Assembly: GCA_014323835.1 (NCBI GenBank)
Contig: JACONH010000004.1
Span: 12,500 to 76,499 of the forward strand
From: Alphaproteobacteria bacterium GM202ARS2
GTDB lineage: Bacteria; Pseudomonadota; Alphaproteobacteria; GM7ARS4
DNA: 64,000 nt
Direction: 5' to 3'
In this document: positions 2,438 through 12,210 of the stretch, in pieces
Position numbering within the stretch: position 1 is the stretch's first letter
Layout of the letters: each line of letters starts with the position of its first letter
Made by a program: the position numbers and the translations under genes
The notes under the pieces: model-generated
Told to the model about the DNA's origin: nothing
What the model saw: the letters and a program-made list of their open reading frames with translations, nothing else
Database searches by the model: none

Positions 2438-2526
2438 AACGAAGGGGAAGAGTGGTGCAACAACAACGGCAATATAGAAAGCGGGGGCTTTTTGTTATAG
2501 ACGCAGTTCGCCCTTTGGTGCAAATC

Positions 2527-3069
2527 ATGCTGGTTGTGGCGATGATGCTGATGGGCGGGGCGCGAGTGGCTTGGGCAGGAGGCGACGGGGCGCGCTTCGA
2601 GGATCTCTTGTTTTGGAACGCTGTACGGGCAGGTAAAATGGCAGATATTGCTCGTATGGTCGAAAGCGGCGAGTCCCTGAATCGCTTGGACAGAAACGGC
2701 ATGACGCCCTTGTTGTATGCGGTGCAGCTGAAAAATGGCGAGATGCTGGCGTATATTCTCGCTAACGAAGTCAATATAGAGCAAGCGGGCCCGTCGGGGG
2801 ATACGGCACTGATCCATGCGGTGCGGCATGGCATGGTGGGCATGGTGGATATGCTCCTGCGGGCGGGAGCGGACATCAACAAGCAAGACCGCTATGGGGT
2901 GACTCCGTTGATGAAGGCGGTGGAACATGGCCACGCGGCGTTGGTGAAAAAACTGCTCATGGAGGGGGCATCGATGGCTATCACGGATTATACCGGGCGA
3001 GATGTCCTGTATTATGCCGACAACCAAAGAGACGGACGGATGCGCCGCTTGCTACGAGAACATCGTTAA
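2527..3069 (+). CDS. Ankyrin repeat protein with probable signal peptide (alternative start at 2452)
   Basis: Repeated GxTPL/GDTAL...A...G ankyrin motifs; hydrophobic N-terminus ending AWA. Confidence 0.85.
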   Translation: MLVVAMMLMGGARVAWAGGDGARFEDLLFWNAVRAGKMADIARMVESGESLNRLDRNGMTPLLYAVQLKNGEMLAYILANEVNIEQAGPSGDTALIHAVRHGMVGMVDMLLRAGADINKQDRYGVTPLMKAVEHGHAALVKKLLMEGASMAITDYTGRDVLYYADNQRDGRMRRLLREHR

Positions 3070-3087
3070 TTTTATATAGTTTATACA

Positions 3088-3207
3088 GTTGCAAATCGTT
3101 ATTATTCTGTTATAGGTTTTTATGGGGGGATGAATTGAGGAATTAACGTTGCAAATCGTTATTATTCTGTTATAGGTTTTTATGGGGGGATGAATTGAGG
3201 AATTAAC
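3088..3207 (+). repeat. Perfect tandem duplication of a 60-bp unit (3088-3147 and 3148-3207)
   Basis: gttgcaaatcgttattattctgttataggtttttatggggggatgaattgaggaattaac occurs twice and ends 1 bp before ATG 3209. Confidence 0.97.
3149..3200 (+). promoter_or_regulatory. Putative sigma70-type promoter plus RBS of the Hsp70 operon (present in both repeat copies)
   Basis: TTGCAA, 16-nt spacer, TATAGG preceded by an extended TGn, then GAGG upstream of ATG. Confidence 0.5.
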
Positions 3208-3208
3208 A

Positions 3209-4039
3209 ATGATGTTTGTGCATGGGGCTGTATGGCGAATTGTGTTGGTGGCGGTTGCGTCATTGTTGCTTATGGTGTTGGCTTATGTTGCCGTTTCGCA
3301 TGATTGGTTCGAGGGAGTTGGCAGTCGTATCGTTTTCGATAGCCGGACGATAGTCACGATTGCCAGCTTGCTCATAGCCTTTGTGTCTTTGGGATTATCC
3401 TTTTTCCTTTATCGGGGCAGGAGGGTTGCCTTCACTAAGGGGGAGCATGCCCTTATGCCTGAGGCATGGTTGCCAACGTTGCAGGACGTTAGTCGTGGTA
3501 TTCAGGGGCAGACAGATTTATTGAAAAAGCTTGCGCGCCATCTTATTGACACCTTTTCTGTTCAATCAAAAGAAATGAGCGATATTAAGGATATGCTTGG
3601 AAAATTTCGGCAAGCCTTGGATAAAAAAGATGAGGAGATAGAGCGTTACAAAAAAGGATACGACCAGCAAGTATTTGTTAAGTTTCTTAGGCGTTTTGCT
3701 AAACTACAAAAAGTGGTGGACGAATCTATCAAGGGTTTCGAGCAGGATTCGTCTCAAGCCAAAAAAGGCTTGGATAATATAAAAGAATTGCTCAGTTATG
3801 CTCTCGTAGAATGTGATGTTGTCGCTTTCAGTCCAAAAGTGGGCGAGGATTGGACAAAACTGGCAAAAGATGAGGTAGAAGATAACCCTGTAACTATTCC
3901 TACCAATGACCCTCAGCAAGACCAGATTATTGCTGAGGTGGTGTCAGTTGGATACAAGTTGGACAACACCGAAACGCCTGTGTTTATTGTGCCAGCTCGA
4001 GTCAAAATTTATGTTTATCAATCGGAGGAATCATCATGA
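3209..4039 (+). CDS. GrpE-like nucleotide exchange factor with two N-terminal TM helices
   Basis: Two hydrophobic helices, a coiled coil, then a GrpE-like head (FSPKVGED...IAEVVSVGYKL...VPARVKI); ATGA overlap with Hsp70. Confidence 0.75.
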   Translation: MMFVHGAVWRIVLVAVASLLLMVLAYVAVSHDWFEGVGSRIVFDSRTIVTIASLLIAFVSLGLSFFLYRGRRVAFTKGEHALMPEAWLPTLQDVSRGIQGQTDLLKKLARHLIDTFSVQSKEMSDIKDMLGKFRQALDKKDEEIERYKKGYDQQVFVKFLRRFAKLQKVVDESIKGFEQDSSQAKKGLDNIKELLSYALVECDVVAFSPKVGEDWTKLAKDEVEDNPVTIPTNDPQQDQIIAEVVSVGYKLDNTETPVFIVPARVKIYVYQSEESS

Positions 4040-5601
4040 GCGCATATATCGGTATCGACTTAGGCACAACATTTTCTGCCGCCGCCACCCTTGACGAGAC
4101 GGGTAGACTTGTCATGATTAAAAATCCTGATGAACAACGTAGTGATAATCTGCTTCCATCGGCTGTTTGGGTTGAGGGAGATGAATTGATTGTAGGAGAG
4201 GAGGCTAGAAAGAGACATCAAAATAAAAGCAGTGGTGGTGTTGCGAGCGGTGATGGAGCCGCAGGATTCAAGAAAGATATGGGGGATTCGAAAATGTATA
4301 AGCTCGCTGATAAAGCATATAGCCCTACCGACCTCAGTGCCGCGGTGCTGAAGAAATTAAAAATGATTGCTGAAAAACAAGTGGGGGATGTTGTTGAGGC
4401 TGTGGTAACCACTCCTGCTAACTTTTCTAATGAAGCTCGGGAAGAAACCATGGCGGCGGCACGTAAAGCGGGATTGAATAGTCGAAATATCAGCAATGAA
4501 CCGACGGCTGCTGCTTTGTATTATGCTGCGACAGAAGGGCAAAATATGCGCGGGACGTATGCGGTCTATGATTTGGGGGGTGGCACTTTCGATGTGTCGA
4601 TTATCCGTATTGATGGGGAAAATATCGAGGTGCTGGCTTCCAATGGCGTGAAAAAGTTAGGCGGCGATTATTTTGACGAGGCACTCATCGAATTGGTGGC
4701 TGATAAATTCAAACAAGAAACTGGCAGAGACATCAATCAAAATCCAGATAATTTAGATTATAGATTGAGTGATGCAGAAGCAGATAAAATTAGTCTCTCT
4801 AACCAACAGACCGTTCTTGCTGGAGGTGGGGAGTCGATAGACGGACATATCATTAAAGTTACAAGGAGTGCCTTAGAAGAAAAAATTTCTTCCTATATTG
4901 CCCAAACCGAGATGCTGTGTGAAAGCACTGTTGAAGACGCGGGCTTGACGATGTCCGATATTCAAGGGGTCTTGTTGGCAGGGGGAAGCACGCGGATGCC
5001 TTGGGTGTCTCGCAGTATTCAAAAGGTTTTTGGCAAGGAACCTATAGTCAAAGCCAATGTCGATGAAGTGGTGGCTTTGGGTGCAGCTTTTTATGTGGCT
5101 TATAAAAACTACGACAAATTAACGCCAACACAACAAGAATTTATTGATAGTGTCATAAAAAAAGGAGGAGTTCAAGAAAGGACGAGCAAGTATTATGGGA
5201 TAATATCTTTGGAGTATGATGAAGCACGTGAAACGGCAGTGTTGGTTAATAGCATTATTATTCATAAAGGGGAAAAGATTCCCTGCTCTCAAACAAAAAC
5301 TTTTTTCACAGTTACGGATGGACAAACGAGTGTTAATTGTAAAGTGACAGAATCGGATAGACCTGTGACTCATGTTGCTTCTGTCGACGACATCGTTGTT
5401 GCGAAAAAACTACTAGGTAACCTGCCACCGAATAGATCTTCTGGTCAGAAAATTGAAGTCACGTTCAGCTATGACGAAAACCAAACCATGCGTTATTCAT
5501 TTGTTGATATCGAAACAGGACTTGAAGTAGGAGGGAGTGTTCACCCCACCAAAGATTCCGGTGATTCGGCATCTGATCTTGGCAAAATTTTAGTGGATTA
5601 A
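4036..5601 (+). CDS. Hsp70/DnaK-family protein, short form (521 aa) without the C-terminal lid
   Basis: GIDLGTT, NEPTAAAL, YDLGGGTFDVS, GGSTRMP, DEVVALGAA motifs; beta-SBD segment (KIPCSQTKTFFTVTDGQT...IEVTFSYDEN). Confidence 0.93.
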   Translation: MSAYIGIDLGTTFSAAATLDETGRLVMIKNPDEQRSDNLLPSAVWVEGDELIVGEEARKRHQNKSSGGVASGDGAAGFKKDMGDSKMYKLADKAYSPTDLSAAVLKKLKMIAEKQVGDVVEAVVTTPANFSNEAREETMAAARKAGLNSRNISNEPTAAALYYAATEGQNMRGTYAVYDLGGGTFDVSIIRIDGENIEVLASNGVKKLGGDYFDEALIELVADKFKQETGRDINQNPDNLDYRLSDAEADKISLSNQQTVLAGGGESIDGHIIKVTRSALEEKISSYIAQTEMLCESTVEDAGLTMSDIQGVLLAGGSTRMPWVSRSIQKVFGKEPIVKANVDEVVALGAAFYVAYKNYDKLTPTQQEFIDSVIKKGGVQERTSKYYGIISLEYDEARETAVLVNSIIIHKGEKIPCSQTKTFFTVTDGQTSVNCKVTESDRPVTHVASVDDIVVAKKLLGNLPPNRSSGQKIEVTFSYDENQTMRYSFVDIETGLEVGGSVHPTKDSGDSASDLGKILVD

Positions 5602-5605
5602 GCTT

Positions 5606-6802
5606 GTGGAAATTCTTATCGTAGCAGCTCTTATTTGGTGGGTGCTTCATATTATTGGCAAAAAAGCGGACAAAATGAACACTGCTGATTCGCAACAGGA
5701 AGAGTCGCATTTACAGCAAACTCATTATCAGCAACCACAAAGAAGGCAGTCAAACGAATTACAAATTCGTATTATTGATAAGACAATTCCTGGCAGGAGA
5801 GCTGCGAGTGCCAAGATTATTGAGATGCGGGGGATGTTTCCGATAATCAAGCACACCAATTTGGGTGTGGTAACGTCTCTGTTGGATGTTACCGATTCGA
5901 CTGACCGTTCCCCTTTGTTTTCGTTCATTGATGATTTACAAGAAGAGAACAGCCATGCTTACCAACATAAAGGAGAAATTGGCAATATGGCTGTCGGTTA
6001 TGGCACTCGAGAGTGGGTTCATGTTGCACTGATTATCCCCGATATGTTGCAACCACCTTATGGTGGAACACGTCGGCTAGAGGTGCGGGTGCGTTTGATT
6101 GACCTCGACAACCCACCTATTATTAAGTTAGGTTTTTTGGTTGACGACAGAGGGGGTATCCTGTGGTCGAGAGCATTGCAATTCGAGCATACGTTCTCAA
6201 TAAAAGGCTATATAGAAAGTGCTGAAAATAGACATAAAGCACAAGCCCTTTCGATTCAAATCGCTATGGCGGTTGCCATGTCCGATGGTGAGCTGCACGA
6301 ATCCGAAGGCAAAGTTATTCACGATTGGGTTGTCAAAGCCATAAGCTCCTTCGAAGGCGATAGAAAAGAAGAACTCAAAAAAATCTATAACGAGGCAATG
6401 AAGACAGCCTATTCCAATCCGCAACCTCTCTTTGAATTGACAGAACAGCTGAATGAGATTGGTGAGAAGAAAACCAAATATGACGCGATAGAACTCAGCT
6501 ACGATGTTATGAGAGCAGATGGTAAAATGGCATCAGGAGAATTAAATATTTTAAGAAAAATCAGCGAGTCTCTGGACATTGACCCCAAAATACTAGAGGA
6601 GATTGAAGGTGAAAAACTCGTCAGAGTCGATGTTTCGCAGCTAGAAGATTATTGTGATAAATTCTTGGGAATTGACTCAAGCTGGGATAAAGAACGTATA
6701 AAAAATCACCTTAATTCTAAGTTTAGGGAATGGAACAATCGTCAAGGTGCACAGGGAATGCTCGACCTTATTGCTCAGTGTCGGAGAAAACATGGCTTAT
6801 GA
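5606..6802 (+). CDS. Membrane-anchored TerB-domain protein with C-terminal degenerate J-like domain (DjlA-like layout)
   Basis: N-terminal TM; paired TerB motifs AVAMSDGELHESE and VMRADGKMASGE; C-terminal FLGIDSSWDKERIKNHLNSKFREWNNR resembles J helices I-II but lacks HPD. Confidence 0.72.
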   Translation: MEILIVAALIWWVLHIIGKKADKMNTADSQQEESHLQQTHYQQPQRRQSNELQIRIIDKTIPGRRAASAKIIEMRGMFPIIKHTNLGVVTSLLDVTDSTDRSPLFSFIDDLQEENSHAYQHKGEIGNMAVGYGTREWVHVALIIPDMLQPPYGGTRRLEVRVRLIDLDNPPIIKLGFLVDDRGGILWSRALQFEHTFSIKGYIESAENRHKAQALSIQIAMAVAMSDGELHESEGKVIHDWVVKAISSFEGDRKEELKKIYNEAMKTAYSNPQPLFELTEQLNEIGEKKTKYDAIELSYDVMRADGKMASGELNILRKISESLDIDPKILEEIEGEKLVRVDVSQLEDYCDKFLGIDSSWDKERIKNHLNSKFREWNNRQGAQGMLDLIAQCRRKHGL

Positions 6803-7862
6803 CGCGGCACTTAAACAGGCAAGGGCGTATGCCGATGTTGTCCGTTACTCAAAAGATAAGGCAACGCATGGGCATATCGTCAGCAGACACCTTATCAAGA
6901 AACAGCAAGATATGCTTTTGCGTTCAAGTCTCTTGATGAGTGAAAGCTTAACGCCTGAGCTATCAAAGAAGTTTGACGAAGTCTGCGAAAAGCTGGGCGT
7001 GCCACGTGATGCTGTTAATGTTTTTATACAAGCCGACTCGACCATTCAGGCGGCGTGTCTCTATAGTTCATCGCATGAGTGTCTGATACAGTTCTCCTCA
7101 GGTCTGATTAACCTGTTAGATAGCGATGAATTTGGTTTTGTCGCTGGACATGAACTCGGGCACTTCTTACTCGAGCATGGTGCTGGTGATTTTCAGAAAG
7201 AATCTATTGAGTATTTTATCCAAAGCCGTGCCCAAGAAATATCTGTAGACCGTCTCGGTCTTATTGCTACAGGCAATCTTGATGCTTCGATGAGTGCTCT
7301 CGTCAAAGCCGCGTCAGGGCTAGAAAATCGTCACTTGCGGTTCGATGTTGGAGCGTTTATCTCGCAGGCAAAAAAGATTTCCCAACCACAAAGAGGAGAA
7401 GGATTTGCCAGCACCCATCCTTCCATATTGACACGATGTCGAGCCTTGTTGTGGTTCTCAACGGATACGACCTATAAAGACTACCCCGTGACCAAACAAT
7501 CACCCGAACTCACAAAACTGAACGCAACAATAGAAAAAGAGCTGAATAAATTTGTCGAGGGACCCATACGAGAAGAAATAAACACAGTCAAAAAAGAAAT
7601 CGCTTTGTGGCTTGCCGCGTCTATCATTATTAAAGATGGCAGATTCGATAAAGACGAGCAACAAAAGATAAAAAATCTATTCGGTGATGTTATCCTCGAT
7701 AAATTAAAACGGTTCTTGTCCGACTCTAACAAGGATACGCTGTCTCATGATATAGCCAACAAGCTTGCTTATAGTAAAAAGAAGCTAGAGCACATGATGC
7801 CGGTCAATTTCGAAAAACTTTATAGCGAGGTAGAGAAATTTATCGCTGAAAAATTGGCATAA
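6792..7862 (+). CDS. M48-family zinc metallopeptidase with possible TerB-like C-terminus
   Basis: FVAGHELGH (HExxH), RAQEISVDR (third ligand Glu) and STHP motifs; GGAG RBS before ATG 6792; overlaps the upstream stop. Confidence 0.85.
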   Translation: MAYDAALKQARAYADVVRYSKDKATHGHIVSRHLIKKQQDMLLRSSLLMSESLTPELSKKFDEVCEKLGVPRDAVNVFIQADSTIQAACLYSSSHECLIQFSSGLINLLDSDEFGFVAGHELGHFLLEHGAGDFQKESIEYFIQSRAQEISVDRLGLIATGNLDASMSALVKAASGLENRHLRFDVGAFISQAKKISQPQRGEGFASTHPSILTRCRALLWFSTDTTYKDYPVTKQSPELTKLNATIEKELNKFVEGPIREEINTVKKEIALWLAASIIIKDGRFDKDEQQKIKNLFGDVILDKLKRFLSDSNKDTLSHDIANKLAYSKKKLEHMMPVNFEKLYSEVEKFIAEKLA

Positions 7863-7976
7863 CAGAGCTTACAATCGGTGGTGTGGCATATTCGTATTGA
7901 AAGATTGCAAAATGGTCAATTGATGTGTTACGACTATAGGCGTGGGGATTGAGAGAGACGATGAGGGGTAAGAGAA

Positions 7977-8186
7977 ATGGTGCAAAAAAAGCCTGAGGAC
8001 ATGACTCTTGAGGAGCTTATCGAGCATCAAAAGAGTCACAAAGTAGGAGAGAAGGAGCTTATCGACCAAGCCATGTCTATTGCCTTGACGGAAGATAGGC
8101 GTCATGGTGGTGATACGTCCTTAGAAGAAATGGAGCGTATAGCGAAAAAAGATAGGGTCACTGGATGTATTAAAAATATATTATAA
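7977..8186 (+). CDS. Small hypothetical protein (69 aa)
   Basis: ATG with a purine-rich RBS (gaggggtaagag); charged helical composition; no recognised family. Confidence 0.5.
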   Translation: MVQKKPEDMTLEELIEHQKSHKVGEKELIDQAMSIALTEDRRHGGDTSLEEMERIAKKDRVTGCIKNIL

Positions 8187-8212
8187 GTATGTTAAATATA
8201 TATTATAGAAAT

Positions 8213-8228
8213 TGTTTCACGTGAAACA
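8213..8228. promoter_or_regulatory. parS centromere-like site (perfect consensus)
   Basis: TGTTTCACGTGAAACA; the palindrome extends to 24 bp (8209-8232). Confidence 0.88.
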
Positions 8229-8310
8229 ATTTTTTTTTTGATAGGGAATAAGCAAAAAACTAGGCTCACTGCCCCCTTCACCCAACGTGTTAAAAACGTG
8301 TTATAGGAAT

Positions 8311-8326
8311 TGTTTCACGAGAAACA
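8311..8326. promoter_or_regulatory. Second parS site (1 mismatch)
   Basis: TGTTTCACGAGAAACA with flanks similar to the first site (tatag.aat / att). Confidence 0.82.
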
Positions 8327-8422
8327 ATTGGGGTGAGTCATGCGTAAAAATAAGTATACTTTAAGTATTCATTCGTGTAAAGTTCACAGCAAGGGCGAAC
8401 ACCACACACACGGAGAAAAGCC

Positions 8423-8572
8423 ATGGGTATGCAAAAATCAATTGCCGCATTCTTAACAACAGGAGCAGGTGCCGCAGCATACTTCGGTTGGGGAGTCCCT
8501 CCCGAATACACAACCGCCGCGGTAACCTTAGCGAGCACCTTGCTCGTCTATCTTGTGCCGAATAAAGGGTAA
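8423..8572 (+). CDS. 49-aa two-TM membrane microprotein A (holin-like)
   Basis: Manual translation MGMQKSIAAFLTTGAGAAAYFGWGVPPEYTTAAVTLASTLLVYLVPNKG; GGAG RBS at 8412-8415; paralog follows immediately. Confidence 0.8.
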   Translation: MGMQKSIAAFLTTGAGAAAYFGWGVPPEYTTAAVTLASTLLVYLVPNKG

Positions 8573-8577
8573 TCGTC

Positions 8578-8727
8578 ATGGGTATTCAAAAACTTATCGC
8601 TAGCGTTATACCCATGATAGCCGCCTTCTTGGCTGCGTATAACATTGAATTATCAGCAGAACAGCTGGCTCTTATTCAGGGTGTTCTGACCTCTATCGCT
8701 GTCTATTACGTCCCCAACAAGGCTTGA
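8578..8727 (+). CDS. 49-aa two-TM membrane microprotein B (paralog of A)
   Basis: Manual translation MGIQKLIASVIPMIAAFLAAYNIELSAEQLALIQGVLTSIAVYYVPNKA; shares MGxQKxIA and VYxVPNK with A. Confidence 0.8.
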   Translation: MGIQKLIASVIPMIAAFLAAYNIELSAEQLALIQGVLTSIAVYYVPNKA

Positions 8728-8728
8728 A

Positions 8729-10652: not shown

Positions 10653-11666
10653 TTAGCCGTGTTTTGTTAAAGGCTCTGCCGATGGCGCGCTGACAGACTC
10701 GGTTGTGCGGGGCAACACATCCACATTGAAGCAACGCTGATAGTATTCGGCAACCGTGAACTTTTCGCCTTCATCACAGCGATTAAGAAAACTCAGGCAA
10801 AAAGCCAGCTCTCTATCGTGGAAAATCGCTATATTCTGGAGCCACGTTATCAGCGTGCGCGGCGACATAACAGTGGAAATATCGCCAGATTGCAAGCCCT
10901 TACGAGTCATGTTTGCCATAGCAATCATGGCTTTCAGCAACTCTTGTCCTTTCGGGTTGTCGTGTTCGGGGACTTTTGCCGTCAAAATACGTAGCTCTTG
11001 TTCGGGCTCGAGATAATTCAGAGCAGTGACAATATGCCACCTATCCATTTGTCCTTGATTAATTTGCTGTGTGCCGTGATACAGTCCGCTGGTGTCGCCC
11101 AAGCCGATGGTGTTGGTGGTAGCAAAAAGACGAAAGTAGGGGTTAGGCGTAATCACTTGATTTTGGTCGAGAAGGGTGAGTTTGCCGTCACTTTCGAGGA
11201 CTCGTTGAATAACGAACATGACGTCGGCTCTACCGGCATCGTATTCATCGAAGACGAGGGCGATAGGACGTTGCAGAGCCCACGTGAGCACGCCGGGCTG
11301 AAACTCGGTGATTTGTTTGCCGTCTTTTAGAACGATGCCGTCTTTGCCGATGAGGTCGATACGGCTTATGTGACTATCGAGATTGACTCGAATACAGGGC
11401 CAGTTGAGTTGGGCGGCGACTTGCTCGATGTGCGTGGATTTGCCGGTGCCGTGGTGCCCTTGCACCATGACTCGTTGATTGTGGGCGAAGCCCGCAAGAA
11501 TCGCCAGAGTCGTCTGCGGGTCAAAGCAATAGCGCGGATCAACTGCGGGCGTATGGTCGTGGGGCTGCGAAAAACAGGGGCTCGACAAATCGTGGTCGAT
11601 GCCAAACAGCTTGCGCGCTGTCGCCTGCGAGTCAGGCTTGTGGTCAGGATTGAGCGGAATCTGCAT
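10653..11666 (-). CDS. cobS: Cobaltochelatase subunit CobS (AAA+ ATPase)
   Basis: [27 protein letters not shown] and [17 protein letters not shown] motifs. Confidence 0.96.
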
Positions 11667-12210
11667 GCTTGAATTCCTCGGGCTTGAGATGTTTCTTGAG
11701 GTGCCAATAGGCTTCGTTGACGGCACGTAACATACTTTCGCCATCAGTGTTGCCACCACGAGCATCAGGGTGGTAACGCTTAACCAGACTATGATAGCGT
11801 TTCTTCAGGGCAGCAAGGGTTACGGGCTCTTGCAACTGCAGAAGAGACAGCGCGCGTCTGGTCTCCTCGCTATGAACCGGTGGGGATGCCCCGCCGTGCG
11901 ACTCGCTGCCCTTATAAAAGATAGAGAACAACAGATGCCGATGCAAAGGATGAAAACCATGCCGCCACGTGGGGCGATGGCCAACCCGGTCTCTGCGACG
12001 GTAACGCTCGATATCGCTTGAACTCATAGAAGCAAAAAAATTCCAGTTCTTATTGTATTGTCGCACATGCTCGAGACACAGATGATAGTGCCCCTGCTCG
12101 GGCGGATGCTTCGGCGCCAGATACGTGCCATACTGCGTGCACCCGTCATGGTCACATAAGGGGGGCGTGGGGGGCGTGCTGTTACCGTTATGCCCTTTGT
12201 ATCGTGTCAT
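11644..12210 (-). CDS. J-domain protein of the alphaproteobacterial cobS-linked type
   Basis: N-terminal C..C...CLEHVRQYNKNWNFF; C-terminal J domain with intact YHPD. Confidence 0.88.
   Translation of the reverse strand: MTRYKGHNGNSTPPTPPLCDHDGCTQYGTYLAPKHPPEQGHYHLCLEHVRQYNKNWNFFASMSSSDIERYRRRDRVGHRPTWRHGFHPLHRHLLFSIFYKGSESHGGASPPVHSEETRRALSLLQLQEPVTLAALKKRYHSLVKRYHPDARGGNTDGESMLRAVNEAYWHLKKHLKPEEFKHADSAQS

Follow-up and report, generated by a model that had tools for sequence, protein, structure and literature searches.

Related Hsp70 systems and a four-gene cassette

Three kinds of bacterial Hsp70 are recognised, DnaK, HscA and HscC, in the cited passages of PMC8215388. Here we analyse a four-gene cassette, consisting of the open reading frames (ORFs) O1 to O4, that lies in a 64,000-nucleotide stretch of the Alphaproteobacteria bacterium GM202ARS2 (assembly GCA_014323835.1, contig JACONH010000004.1, positions 12,500 to 76,499); this whole stretch is called the window. 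The cassette encodes a transmembrane (TM) protein predicted to have a GrpE fold, an Hsp70 lacking the helical lid, a TM adaptor with a beta-sandwich, a TerB domain and a W-N-x-R tail, and a soluble M48 peptidase. We read it as a membrane-gated Hsp70 switch with a protease output, which may be used in conflict or defence (against a phage, another invader or an envelope insult), and we put the probability of this reading at roughly 0.45.

The cassette shares several features with the DnaK-DnaJ-GrpE system: an Hsp70 ATPase with a nucleotide-binding domain and a beta substrate-binding domain, a partner with a GrpE fold whose gene lies directly upstream, and a third protein whose tail aligns weakly in the register of a J domain. 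It differs from that system in that the lid, the VLLL linker and the arginine contacting the H-P-D motif are missing, W-N-x-R is found in the adaptor and both cofactors are membrane-anchored. A second comparison is with HscC of E. coli, likewise a specialised and sporadically distributed extra Hsp70, which works with membrane-anchored cochaperones of its own, DjlB and DjlC, whose genes lie close by (PMC8215388, passages on HscC). However, HscC keeps its lid, has a true J-domain partner and is said in those passages not to use GrpE, whereas the cassette contains a GrpE-fold protein and a peptidase.

Hsp70-like NTPases have been proposed as switches in conflict systems, according to the cited sections of two studies (PMC7159879; bioRxiv 10.64898/2026.10.19.760177). 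The GAP1-N2 GTPase conflict systems resemble the cassette in combining an extra Hsp70, GrpE and a J-type adaptor and in the NTP-dependent switch proposed for them (Kaur et al. 2020, PMC7159879, same sections). As described there, they contain a GTPase, FNIII-repeat proteins and a true DnaJ and occur in actinobacteria and firmicutes, whereas in the cassette the cofactors span the membrane and include TerB, and there is an M48 peptidase as well. No Pfam match to a GTPase or an FNIII domain was found in the insert that carries the cassette (Table 1), so that the linked TRAFAC GTPase and FNIII-repeat protein of the GAP1-N2 systems appear to be lacking. In another group, the EACC1-protease defence modules, protease and effector parts are fused with a DnaK-like domain that has no lid (PMC12642450, cited part). 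These modules also link a lid-less Hsp70 to a protease, with a proposed role as stress or defence sensor, but in the cited part of that work they are fusions, about 50% identical to DnaK, that carry another protease together with a pore-forming effector. The cassette, in contrast, consists of separate genes, shows 34% identity to DnaK, encodes an M48 protease and has no EACC1.

A full-text literature search, whose reach excluded supplementary tables and the main survey of TerB contexts, yielded no published account of the four-gene cassette. The parts are of known kinds, and their assembly (TM GrpE-fold protein, lid-less Hsp70, TM-beta-sandwich-TerB-W-N-x-R adaptor, soluble M48 peptidase) is apparently undescribed. 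The cassette would add a distinct mobile kind of Hsp70, with its own TM GrpE, with W-N-x-R in the place of the otherwise universal H-P-D and with matching changes on the Hsp70 side, and would offer a natural experiment on the rewiring and insulation of Hsp70-cochaperone specificity.

A preliminary description, made from the sequence alone, had already proposed a co-directional, tightly coupled operon of a two-TM GrpE, an Hsp70 with ATPase motifs and without lid and DVLLLD linker, a TM-TerB protein with a J-like tail and an M48 HExxH peptidase, AT-richer than the core genes that it interrupts, separate from the housekeeping DnaK and horizontally mobile. All coordinates of the gene coupling were reproduced (Table 1), and these assignments hold up except for the J-like tail, which finds weak support, as set out below. 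The function that it suggested, control of a protease by a switch under stress or in defence, is still something that we infer. Four features had been missed: the beta-sandwich of O3, a deletion of 10 residues in O3, the dispensability of O4 in one lineage and the variable outer segment of O1.

The four proteins and the altered cochaperone contact

O2 belongs to the Hsp70 family (PF00012, E-value 6.4e-84, 282.7 bits, cut-off 20.6). It comprises a nucleotide-binding domain (residues 1-352), a non-canonical connector of about 50 residues and a beta substrate-binding domain that extends to about residue 505; in the comparison with the DnaK structure 2v7y, the nucleotide-binding domain aligned with 1-346 and the beta substrate-binding domain with 378-469. 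Since the protein ends about 15 residues past the alignment of the latter domain, it has no helical lid. The GIDLGTT, NEPTAAA and DLGGGTFD blocks and the lysine of F-K-R are invariant in all 17 aligned sequences, which comprise the O2 family and the DnaK of the same genome, and these intact motifs indicate that O2 is ATPase-competent. Three loci with cut or split ORFs (L009, L013 and L021) were omitted from the alignment (A6). Where DnaK has its V-L-L-L-D linker, the O2 family has V-x-E-x-T, which follows an insert of about 20 residues and is not hydrophobic.

Sequence identity amounts to 34% with the genome's own DnaK and to 31% with E. coli HscC. All NCBIfam equivalog models scored O2 below their cut-offs, the best DnaK model giving 290.9 bits against 648 (cut-offs of the DnaK models 648-822) and the HscA model 266.9 bits (cut-off 708). 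Judged by equivalog score, lid and linker, O2 appears to lie outside the DnaK, HscA and HscC types. The genome also encodes grpE-dnaK-dnaJ and hscB-hscA elsewhere, showing that the cassette is separate from the housekeeping grpE-dnaK-dnaJ set.

The contact by which J proteins dock onto Hsp70 seems to be altered as well. The O2 column aligned with the H-P-D-binding arginine of DnaK, which we take to be Arg167 on the basis of the NEPTAAA block and of DnaK numbering, holds Arg in the genome's own DnaK, but in all 16 members of the O2 family it holds Tyr, Asn, His, Ser or Gln. In the canonical contact, the aspartate of H-P-D bonds DnaK Arg167 and the histidine bonds the linker at Leu391 (PMC8215388, passages on the J-domain interface). 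The alignments thus suggest that both sides of the classical J-Hsp70 contact have changed together. The changed arginine column, the replaced linker and the W-N-x-R motif fit a system that is unable to exchange parts with the housekeeping DnaK and HscA sets.

For O3, the AlphaFold2 (AF2) model (pLDDT 85.5) contains an N-terminal TM helix, a disordered linker, a beta-sandwich (residues 53-197), a TerB domain (about 202-322) and three helices (343-395). The TerB assignment is supported by Pfam (PF05099, E-value 6.3e-10, 39.8 bits, cut-off 24.4), which matches 28 of 29 family members, and by the structure search, in which the TerB-like structures 2ou3 and 2h5n were found at probability 1.0; the other matches were generic beta-sandwich folds. 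With its N-terminal TM helix, cytoplasmic TerB domain and small C-terminal helical domain, O3 resembles DjlA, whose architecture is given in the cited part of PMC11709261. Unlike DjlA, it has an additional beta-sandwich of 145 residues between the TM helix and TerB, and it has no H-P-D and no Pfam DnaJ match. The NCBIfam DjlA equivalog gave 19.2 bits against a cut-off of 162, which sets O3 apart from DjlA proper.

The three C-terminal helices carry the motif K-W-N-N-R in the window protein. Its W and N are invariant in all 19 aligned sequences, and among 149 representatives 122 have W-N-[NGSDAHP]-R and none has H-P-D. A search for the tail domain gave 745 representatives at 50% identity (E-value up to 0.001; 306 at up to 1e-10), most of which are about 400 residues long like O3. 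This family is unnamed, and the number of representatives makes it suitable for systematic study.

The preliminary description had called this tail J-like, with WNNR at the position of H-P-D. The motif is confirmed; the homology to J domains is only weakly supported. None of 29 O3 family members matched Pfam DnaJ (PF00226) at an E-value of up to 1, and a profile search of the Protein Data Bank (PDB) with the tail returned no J domain at an E-value of up to 10. When 127 O3 tails were compared by hhalign with 33 J domains, taken from this genome and from related ones, 47 columns from helix I to helix III aligned in J register, placing W-N-x under H-P-D, with a weak score of 18.3 (P 0.0046, probability 7.6%); the reversed control scored 9.4, and none of 30 column shuffles reached 18.3 (best 12.9). 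One locus (L010) was dropped from the first hhalign query. In a language-model atlas, the nearest named clusters were DjlA/TerB and DnaJ at 0.80-0.84 (DnaJ 0.80), which is below the lead threshold of 0.9. The tail is therefore described as J-like in position and register, which falls short of an established J domain.

The O3 protein of the window is the only one of 19 aligned sequences that lacks 10 conserved residues directly after W-N-N, owing to an in-frame deletion; its closest relative, 68% identical, keeps them. This raises the question whether the window copy alone has decayed while the real system operates elsewhere, an explanation that is compatible with any of the other readings. It would also agree with the outer loop of O1, which is the shortest seen, and with the visible decay of other copies (L009, L013 and L021). 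We consider it unlikely: the four ORFs are intact with their start overlaps kept, O2 and O4 retain every catalytic residue, the O3 deletion preserves the frame, and a perfect 60-nt duplication of the promoter and ribosome-binding site region upstream of O1 suggests recent selection on, or a change in, expression.

The AF2 model of O1 (pLDDT 75.5) consists of helices 2-30 and 45-74, which are modelled as TM helices, a long helix of 64 residues (85-148), a helical bundle and a C-terminal beta domain. When it was compared with the PDB by Foldseek, ranks 1 to 10 were all GrpE chains (9a81, 9blt, 9bls, 1dkg, 3a6m, 4ani and 8gb3), with E-values from 6.9e-6 to 3.8e-2 and probabilities of 0.96-1.00. 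Sequence profiles were less sensitive to this similarity. Pfam GrpE (PF01025) matched none of 12 O1 homologues, the window protein included, at an E-value of up to 1, and a PDB profile search with the O1 alignment (A2, from which L006 with its cut or split ORF was omitted) was dominated by coiled-coil designs and reached GrpE only at an E-value of 0.88. The longer O1 homologue of a Rhodothermales locus (L016), on the other hand, matched PF01025 over profile positions 9-163 of 165 with 23.2 bits (E-value 6.2e-5, cut-off 25.8). Because of the Foldseek ranking and this near-cut-off match, O1 is assigned a GrpE fold on the basis of its model, and homology to GrpE is probable.

Hydropathy analysis likewise predicts two such helices in O1, one close to the N-terminus, which is a signal or TM helix, and a TM helix immediately ahead of the coiled coil. 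The stretch that separates them has 14 residues in the window; in most relatives its length is 50-110 residues, and in Rhodothermales it reaches 300-400 and is made up of leucine-rich repeats (LRR; Pfam E-values from 2e-20 to 9e-24 in 3 of 3 loci). With a variable, repeat-type outer domain, one TM helix and a long GrpE helix, O1 looks like a receptor. No longer fused forms of O1 were found among the candidates, which were limited to proteins of 707-2015 residues and thus provide weak evidence.

An outer part of this kind could also sense a host or community factor, in which case the Hsp70 switch would adapt the envelope or a secreted factor and the cassette would have spread among marine host-associated bacteria. 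LRR domains are a eukaryote-like sensor fold, the window genome has a small size of 1.83 Mb, the insert adjoins an ankyrin-repeat gene, and several loci belong to lineages that are sponge-associated or marine (Candidatus Poriferihabitaceae, AqS3, SAR86, Kordiimonas and Nitromaritima). We regard a role in host interaction as improbable, since the ankyrin gene is a conserved backbone gene and not part of the insert, the cassette is also found in free-living marine taxa, and only the O1 loop would be exposed outside, with nothing else secreted.

O4 is an M48 peptidase (PF01435, E-value 1.8e-14, 54.4 bits, cut-off 20.3). In all 12 homologues the residues H120, E121 and H124 of its HELGH motif are invariant, as are E149 and H209-P210. 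The protein has no signal peptide, hydropathy analysis found no TM segment in 11 of the 12 homologues, and O4 is classified as soluble. HExxH, the downstream Glu and the H-P motif are shared with the M48 proteases HtpX, Ste24 and BepA/LoiP; unlike these, O4 has neither TM segments nor a signal peptide and adds a C-terminal helical domain of about 110 residues, which belongs to no known family. Its best sequence matches in the PDB are HtpX and Ste24, at weak E-values of 0.018-0.08, and the NCBIfam HtpX models gave at most 24 bits against cut-offs of 245-422. By topology and score, O4 appears to be outside the HtpX-type membrane M48 proteases. The additional domain had been likened to a second TerB half in the preliminary description; this was rejected by hhalign (probability 0.4%, P 0.15).

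Taken together, these parts could form a self-contained Hsp70 machine that is assembled on the inner membrane and insulated from the housekeeping DnaK. O1 would act as a GrpE-type nucleotide-exchange factor whose coiled-coil helix runs on from the TM helix, and through its variable outer segment the exchange on O2 could be gated by what happens outside the membrane. O3 would be a DjlA-like membrane adaptor, whose W-N-x-R tail takes over the part of a J domain in recruiting or triggering O2. The Hsp70 itself would be an active ATPase, clamping its clients only transiently since it has no lid, and O4 would be the output, either cleaving the clients held by O2 or being switched by it. The contacts between the proteins, the direction of signalling, the signal, the substrate and the role in defence are what we infer here; the folds and families of the parts, their co-conservation, the insertion, the separate housekeeping set and the intact catalytic motifs are observed. 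If a TM GrpE does gate exchange, this would be a new route for a signal across a membrane.

Beyond this scheme, the cassette could represent a fourth prokaryotic class of Hsp70 beside DnaK, HscA and HscC, with nucleotide exchange as the signal, a TM GrpE as receptor that would sense an invader or envelope event by its outer segment and gate the lid-less Hsp70, an orthogonal W-N-x-R cochaperone and an M48 or TerB-adaptor output, serving as an anti-phage or anti-invader immune module. We put this wider proposal forward as a tentative one, doubtful in its full form.

The main rival to a role in conflict or defence is a dedicated module for membrane proteostasis or envelope stress, carried as an accessory trait by marine and host-associated bacteria, in which O1 and O3 would hold the Hsp70 at the inner membrane and damaged membrane or secretory proteins, extracted or held there, would be passed to an HtpX-like M48 protease that has lost its membrane anchor. 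The composition of the cassette, a chaperone and a protease with no toxin, agrees with this, as do the sequence relatives of O4, HtpX and Ste24. The layout of O3, with TM helix, TerB and C-terminal cochaperone part, mirrors that of DjlA, a membrane cochaperone of DnaK (PMC11709261, cited part), and HscC with the membrane-anchored DjlB and DjlC provides a precedent for a specialised Hsp70 at the membrane (PMC8215388, passages on HscC). On the other hand, the genome already has DnaK, DnaJ and GrpE, the rewired cochaperone interface speaks against the sharing of parts with DnaK, the outer segment of O1 is variable and includes LRR in some loci, and an Hsp70 without a lid would be poor at holding clients (lid function as given in the cited passages of PMC8215388). 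We hold this explanation to be possible, though rather unlikely; the genomic evidence that bears on it follows.

Recurrence, acquisition and genomic neighbourhood

A scan of one genome per species yielded at least 16 loci with a relative of O3, located in Alpha- and Gammaproteobacteria, Nitrospinota, Planctomycetota and Rhodothermales. Together with three loci from relatives of the window genome, 19 loci, which represent five phyla, were examined. The order O1-O2-O3-O4 was found in 14 of them, in Alpha- and Gammaproteobacteria, Nitrospinota and Planctomycetota; among these, the ORFs are split at L009, and the cassette of L013 is interrupted by a DDE transposase. Such a recurrence of the same four-gene order in unrelated taxa, which the preliminary description had suggested looking for, is far beyond chance. 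Three further loci, all from Rhodothermales, carry O1-O2-O3 without O4, one of them with a second O3 paralogue, so that the Hsp70 triad forms the core of the system, to which the peptidase is frequently added. The remaining two loci are a truncated copy in a genome of the same family (G001), which retains O4, O3 and the C-terminal part of O2 without O1 and lies beside groEL and a Type III restriction-modification pair, and a solo O3 paralogue (L012), which is located on the same chromosome (record OZ241742.1) as the three-gene locus L016 at a distance of 2.6 Mb.

Two O3 paralogues in tandem are present at locus L015. Several O3 adaptors per Hsp70 would match the behaviour of J proteins. The DDE transposase of L013 (PF13701, E-value 3.6e-152) is encoded at 5394-6848 of that locus on the minus strand, between the 3' end of O2 and O3.

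In the window, the cassette sits in an insert with a GC content of about 0.38-0.47 (0.39-0.46 for the cassette, 3250-8250), compared with 0.55-0.62 in the flanks on both sides. The insert contains O1 to O4 and three small ORFs only. In G001 the backbone order is PBP-SCO1-CobA-Ank-CobT-CobS, where Ank and CobT are separated by about 0.1 kb; in G002, which belongs to the same order as the window genome, CobA adjoins CobT. Since these relatives show an empty junction where the window has 5.66 kb, the cassette is an insertion. Complete cassettes are low-GC islands in two other genomes of the class as well (0.47-0.53 against 0.62-0.68, and 0.54-0.57 against 0.61-0.65). When the class was sampled evenly, 6 of 401 genomes proved to contain the O3 tail domain; these six, the window genome among them, belong to different families. 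The low GC content, the empty site in G001, the patchy distribution and the occurrence in unrelated taxa support a horizontal acquisition of the cassette. No tRNA gene was found within 20 kb of the cassette in the window, and no direct repeats were found that flank the insert.

The neighbourhood of the cassette was analysed at the 19 loci, where 116 ORFs of at least 110 residues lie within 4.5 kb of it (ORFs inside the cassette span were left out); in addition, 20 large neighbours were scanned singly against PADLOC and six ORFs against Pfam. Defence or mobile genes occur at several loci. In a metagenome-assembled genome of Kordiimonas (L001, 9136-14330), ArdA is encoded about 60 bp after O4 and an Olokun pair lies within 2 kb (OloB 1.9e-138, OloA 8.4e-60), so that this region looks like a mobile or defence island. 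Neighbours at other loci include a Type III restriction-modification pair (L021), an SNF2 HmaA/DrmD-like helicase (L016) and an IS200-like transposase (L022), and the solo O3 of L012 is surrounded by two GmrSD-like (HEC-05) genes and by genes for a DNA methylase and PDC-S20. The Pfam tally of the flanks also contains two rve integrases and a second ArdA.

These observations bear on both readings. The defence and mobile neighbours, the presence in only 6 of 401 genomes of the class and the frequent decay speak against a proteostasis function, whereas the mostly housekeeping flanks and the absence of PADLOC matches to the cassette proteins favour it. A use in conflict or defence is ranked first because mobility, patchiness, decay, the receptor-like O1, the insulated interface, a partial defence neighbourhood and the published proposals of Hsp70 switches all point in its direction. 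The turnover expected of an accessory gene set is visible in the empty site of the relatives, in the low-GC islands of three genomes and in the split, truncated and interrupted copies. If the cassette is defensive, an Hsp70 switch with a protease output would join the prokaryotic immune systems and lend experimental support to the earlier comparative-genomic proposals.

For a link between the Hsp70 and the protease, the evidence comes from a conserved tail and from complex prediction. A C-terminal tail of O2, I-D/E-K-F-x-V-E (L-G-K-I-L-V-D in the window), is present at 12 of 13 aligned loci with O4 and at none of the three without it. The O2-O4 complex was predicted with an ipSAE of 0.53 (runs 0.54, 0.53 and 0.53), compared with 0.21 for the best control; the runs agree in at least 72% of contacts, and the partner pLDDT is at least 79. 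The mark applied to such predictions is reached by 58 of 80 solved complexes and by 2 of 110 mismatched pairs. The prediction gives weak support to a contact between O2 and O4.

Several results weigh against a conflict or defence role. The correlation between the O2 tail and O4 counts as one independent event, because the loci without O4 form a single lineage, and for the same reason, namely that it is missing in one lineage, the M48 protease cannot be the universal output. In the ipSAE band of up to 0.60, into which the O2-O4 prediction falls, the mark is reached by 7 of the 80 solved complexes and by both mismatched pairs, and passes in this band would be wrong more often than right unless the pairing is already likely. 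The scan of the four cassette proteins against PADLOC 2.0.0 gave matches at noise level only (Csn2 0.0037, capP 0.0024 over the HExxH stretch, JetD 0.012), and the cassette has no classical toxic effector such as a nuclease, an NADase or a pore-former. Among the 20 large neighbours 13 had no PADLOC match, the Pfam tally of the 116 flanking ORFs is mostly metabolic, and defence neighbours are present at some loci only, an enrichment not being established since they were counted without a background rate. The search for O3 found no copy on 72,556 plasmids, on 50,697 phages or on IMG/VR contigs. Also on this side are the weak support for J-domain homology of the O3 tail and the O3 deletion, which lies beside the key motif, so that the window copy may be impaired.

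Features of the cassette and its surroundings in the window

The positions of the genes and of the other features are listed in Table 1. O4 has two candidate starts, GTG 6747 and ATG 6792.

Table 1. Features of the cassette, of the insert and of adjacent sequences, in window positions.
Feature	Positions	Strand	Remarks
O1	3209-4039	+	276-aa ORF
O2	4036-5601	+	521-aa ORF; shares ATGA (4036-4039) with O1
O3	5606-6802	+	398-aa ORF with GTG start; 4-bp gap (5602-5605) after O2
O4	6792-7862	+	from ATG 6792, giving an 11-bp overlap (6792-6802) with O3; frame open from GTG 6747
Low-GC insert	3070-8728		from the ankyrin gene (end 3069) to cobT (minus strand, stop 8729); 5.66 kb
Tandem duplication	3088-3207	+	60 nt, two copies, 100% identical; directly 5' of O1
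69-aa acidic ORF	7977-8186	+	between O4 and the terminator-like hairpin; good ribosome-binding site
Terminator-like palindrome	8210-8241	+	perfect 22-nt palindrome followed by ten T; from repeat analysis
Direct repeat	8190-8231 / 8288-8329		42 nt, 86% identical
Paralogous 49-aa ORFs	8423-8572 and 8578-8727		hydrophobic, side by side
Ankyrin-repeat protein gene	2452-3069		directly upstream of the insert
Small J-domain protein gene	11644-12210	-	3' of cobS

Each copy of the 60-nt tandem duplication upstream of O1 contains a promoter-like pair (TTGCAA/TATAGG), a mini-frame of three codons (ATG AAT TGA) and a ribosome-binding site (GAGG). The promoter-like pair was picked out by eye, and a consensus scan gave no match there. 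An exact duplication suggests a recent event, which possibly raised or changed expression; it could also be an artefact of the assembly.

For the acidic ORF of 69 residues downstream of O4, neither a Pfam family nor a tblastn match at an E-value of up to 1 in the 19 related loci was found, and it is set outside the conserved cassette because it has no counterpart there. The palindrome with its run of T probably marks the end of the operon transcript; a consensus terminator scan missed it because the stem contains few G-C pairs. Each copy of the 42-nt direct repeat contains a 22-nt palindrome centred on CACGTG or CACGAG. The second palindrome, a near-copy at 8308-8329, has no T run and could be a putative protein-binding site.

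At the end of the insert, the two hydrophobic ORFs of 49 residues begin with M-G-x-Q-K and end with V-P-N-K-G/A. They match no Pfam family and are absent from the empty site of G001. The ankyrin-repeat protein on the other side of the insert has a hydrophobic N-terminus, is 66% identical to its counterpart in G001 and is encoded by a backbone gene. The small J-domain protein (PF00226, 36.3 bits) has a true H-P-D; its gene is kept at the same place in G002 and in a further genome (G003) and is part of the backbone outside the cassette. GC skew reaches 0.44-0.51 at 1001-2250, in the minus-strand genes SCO1 and cobA, and is much above that of the rest of the first 14 kb.

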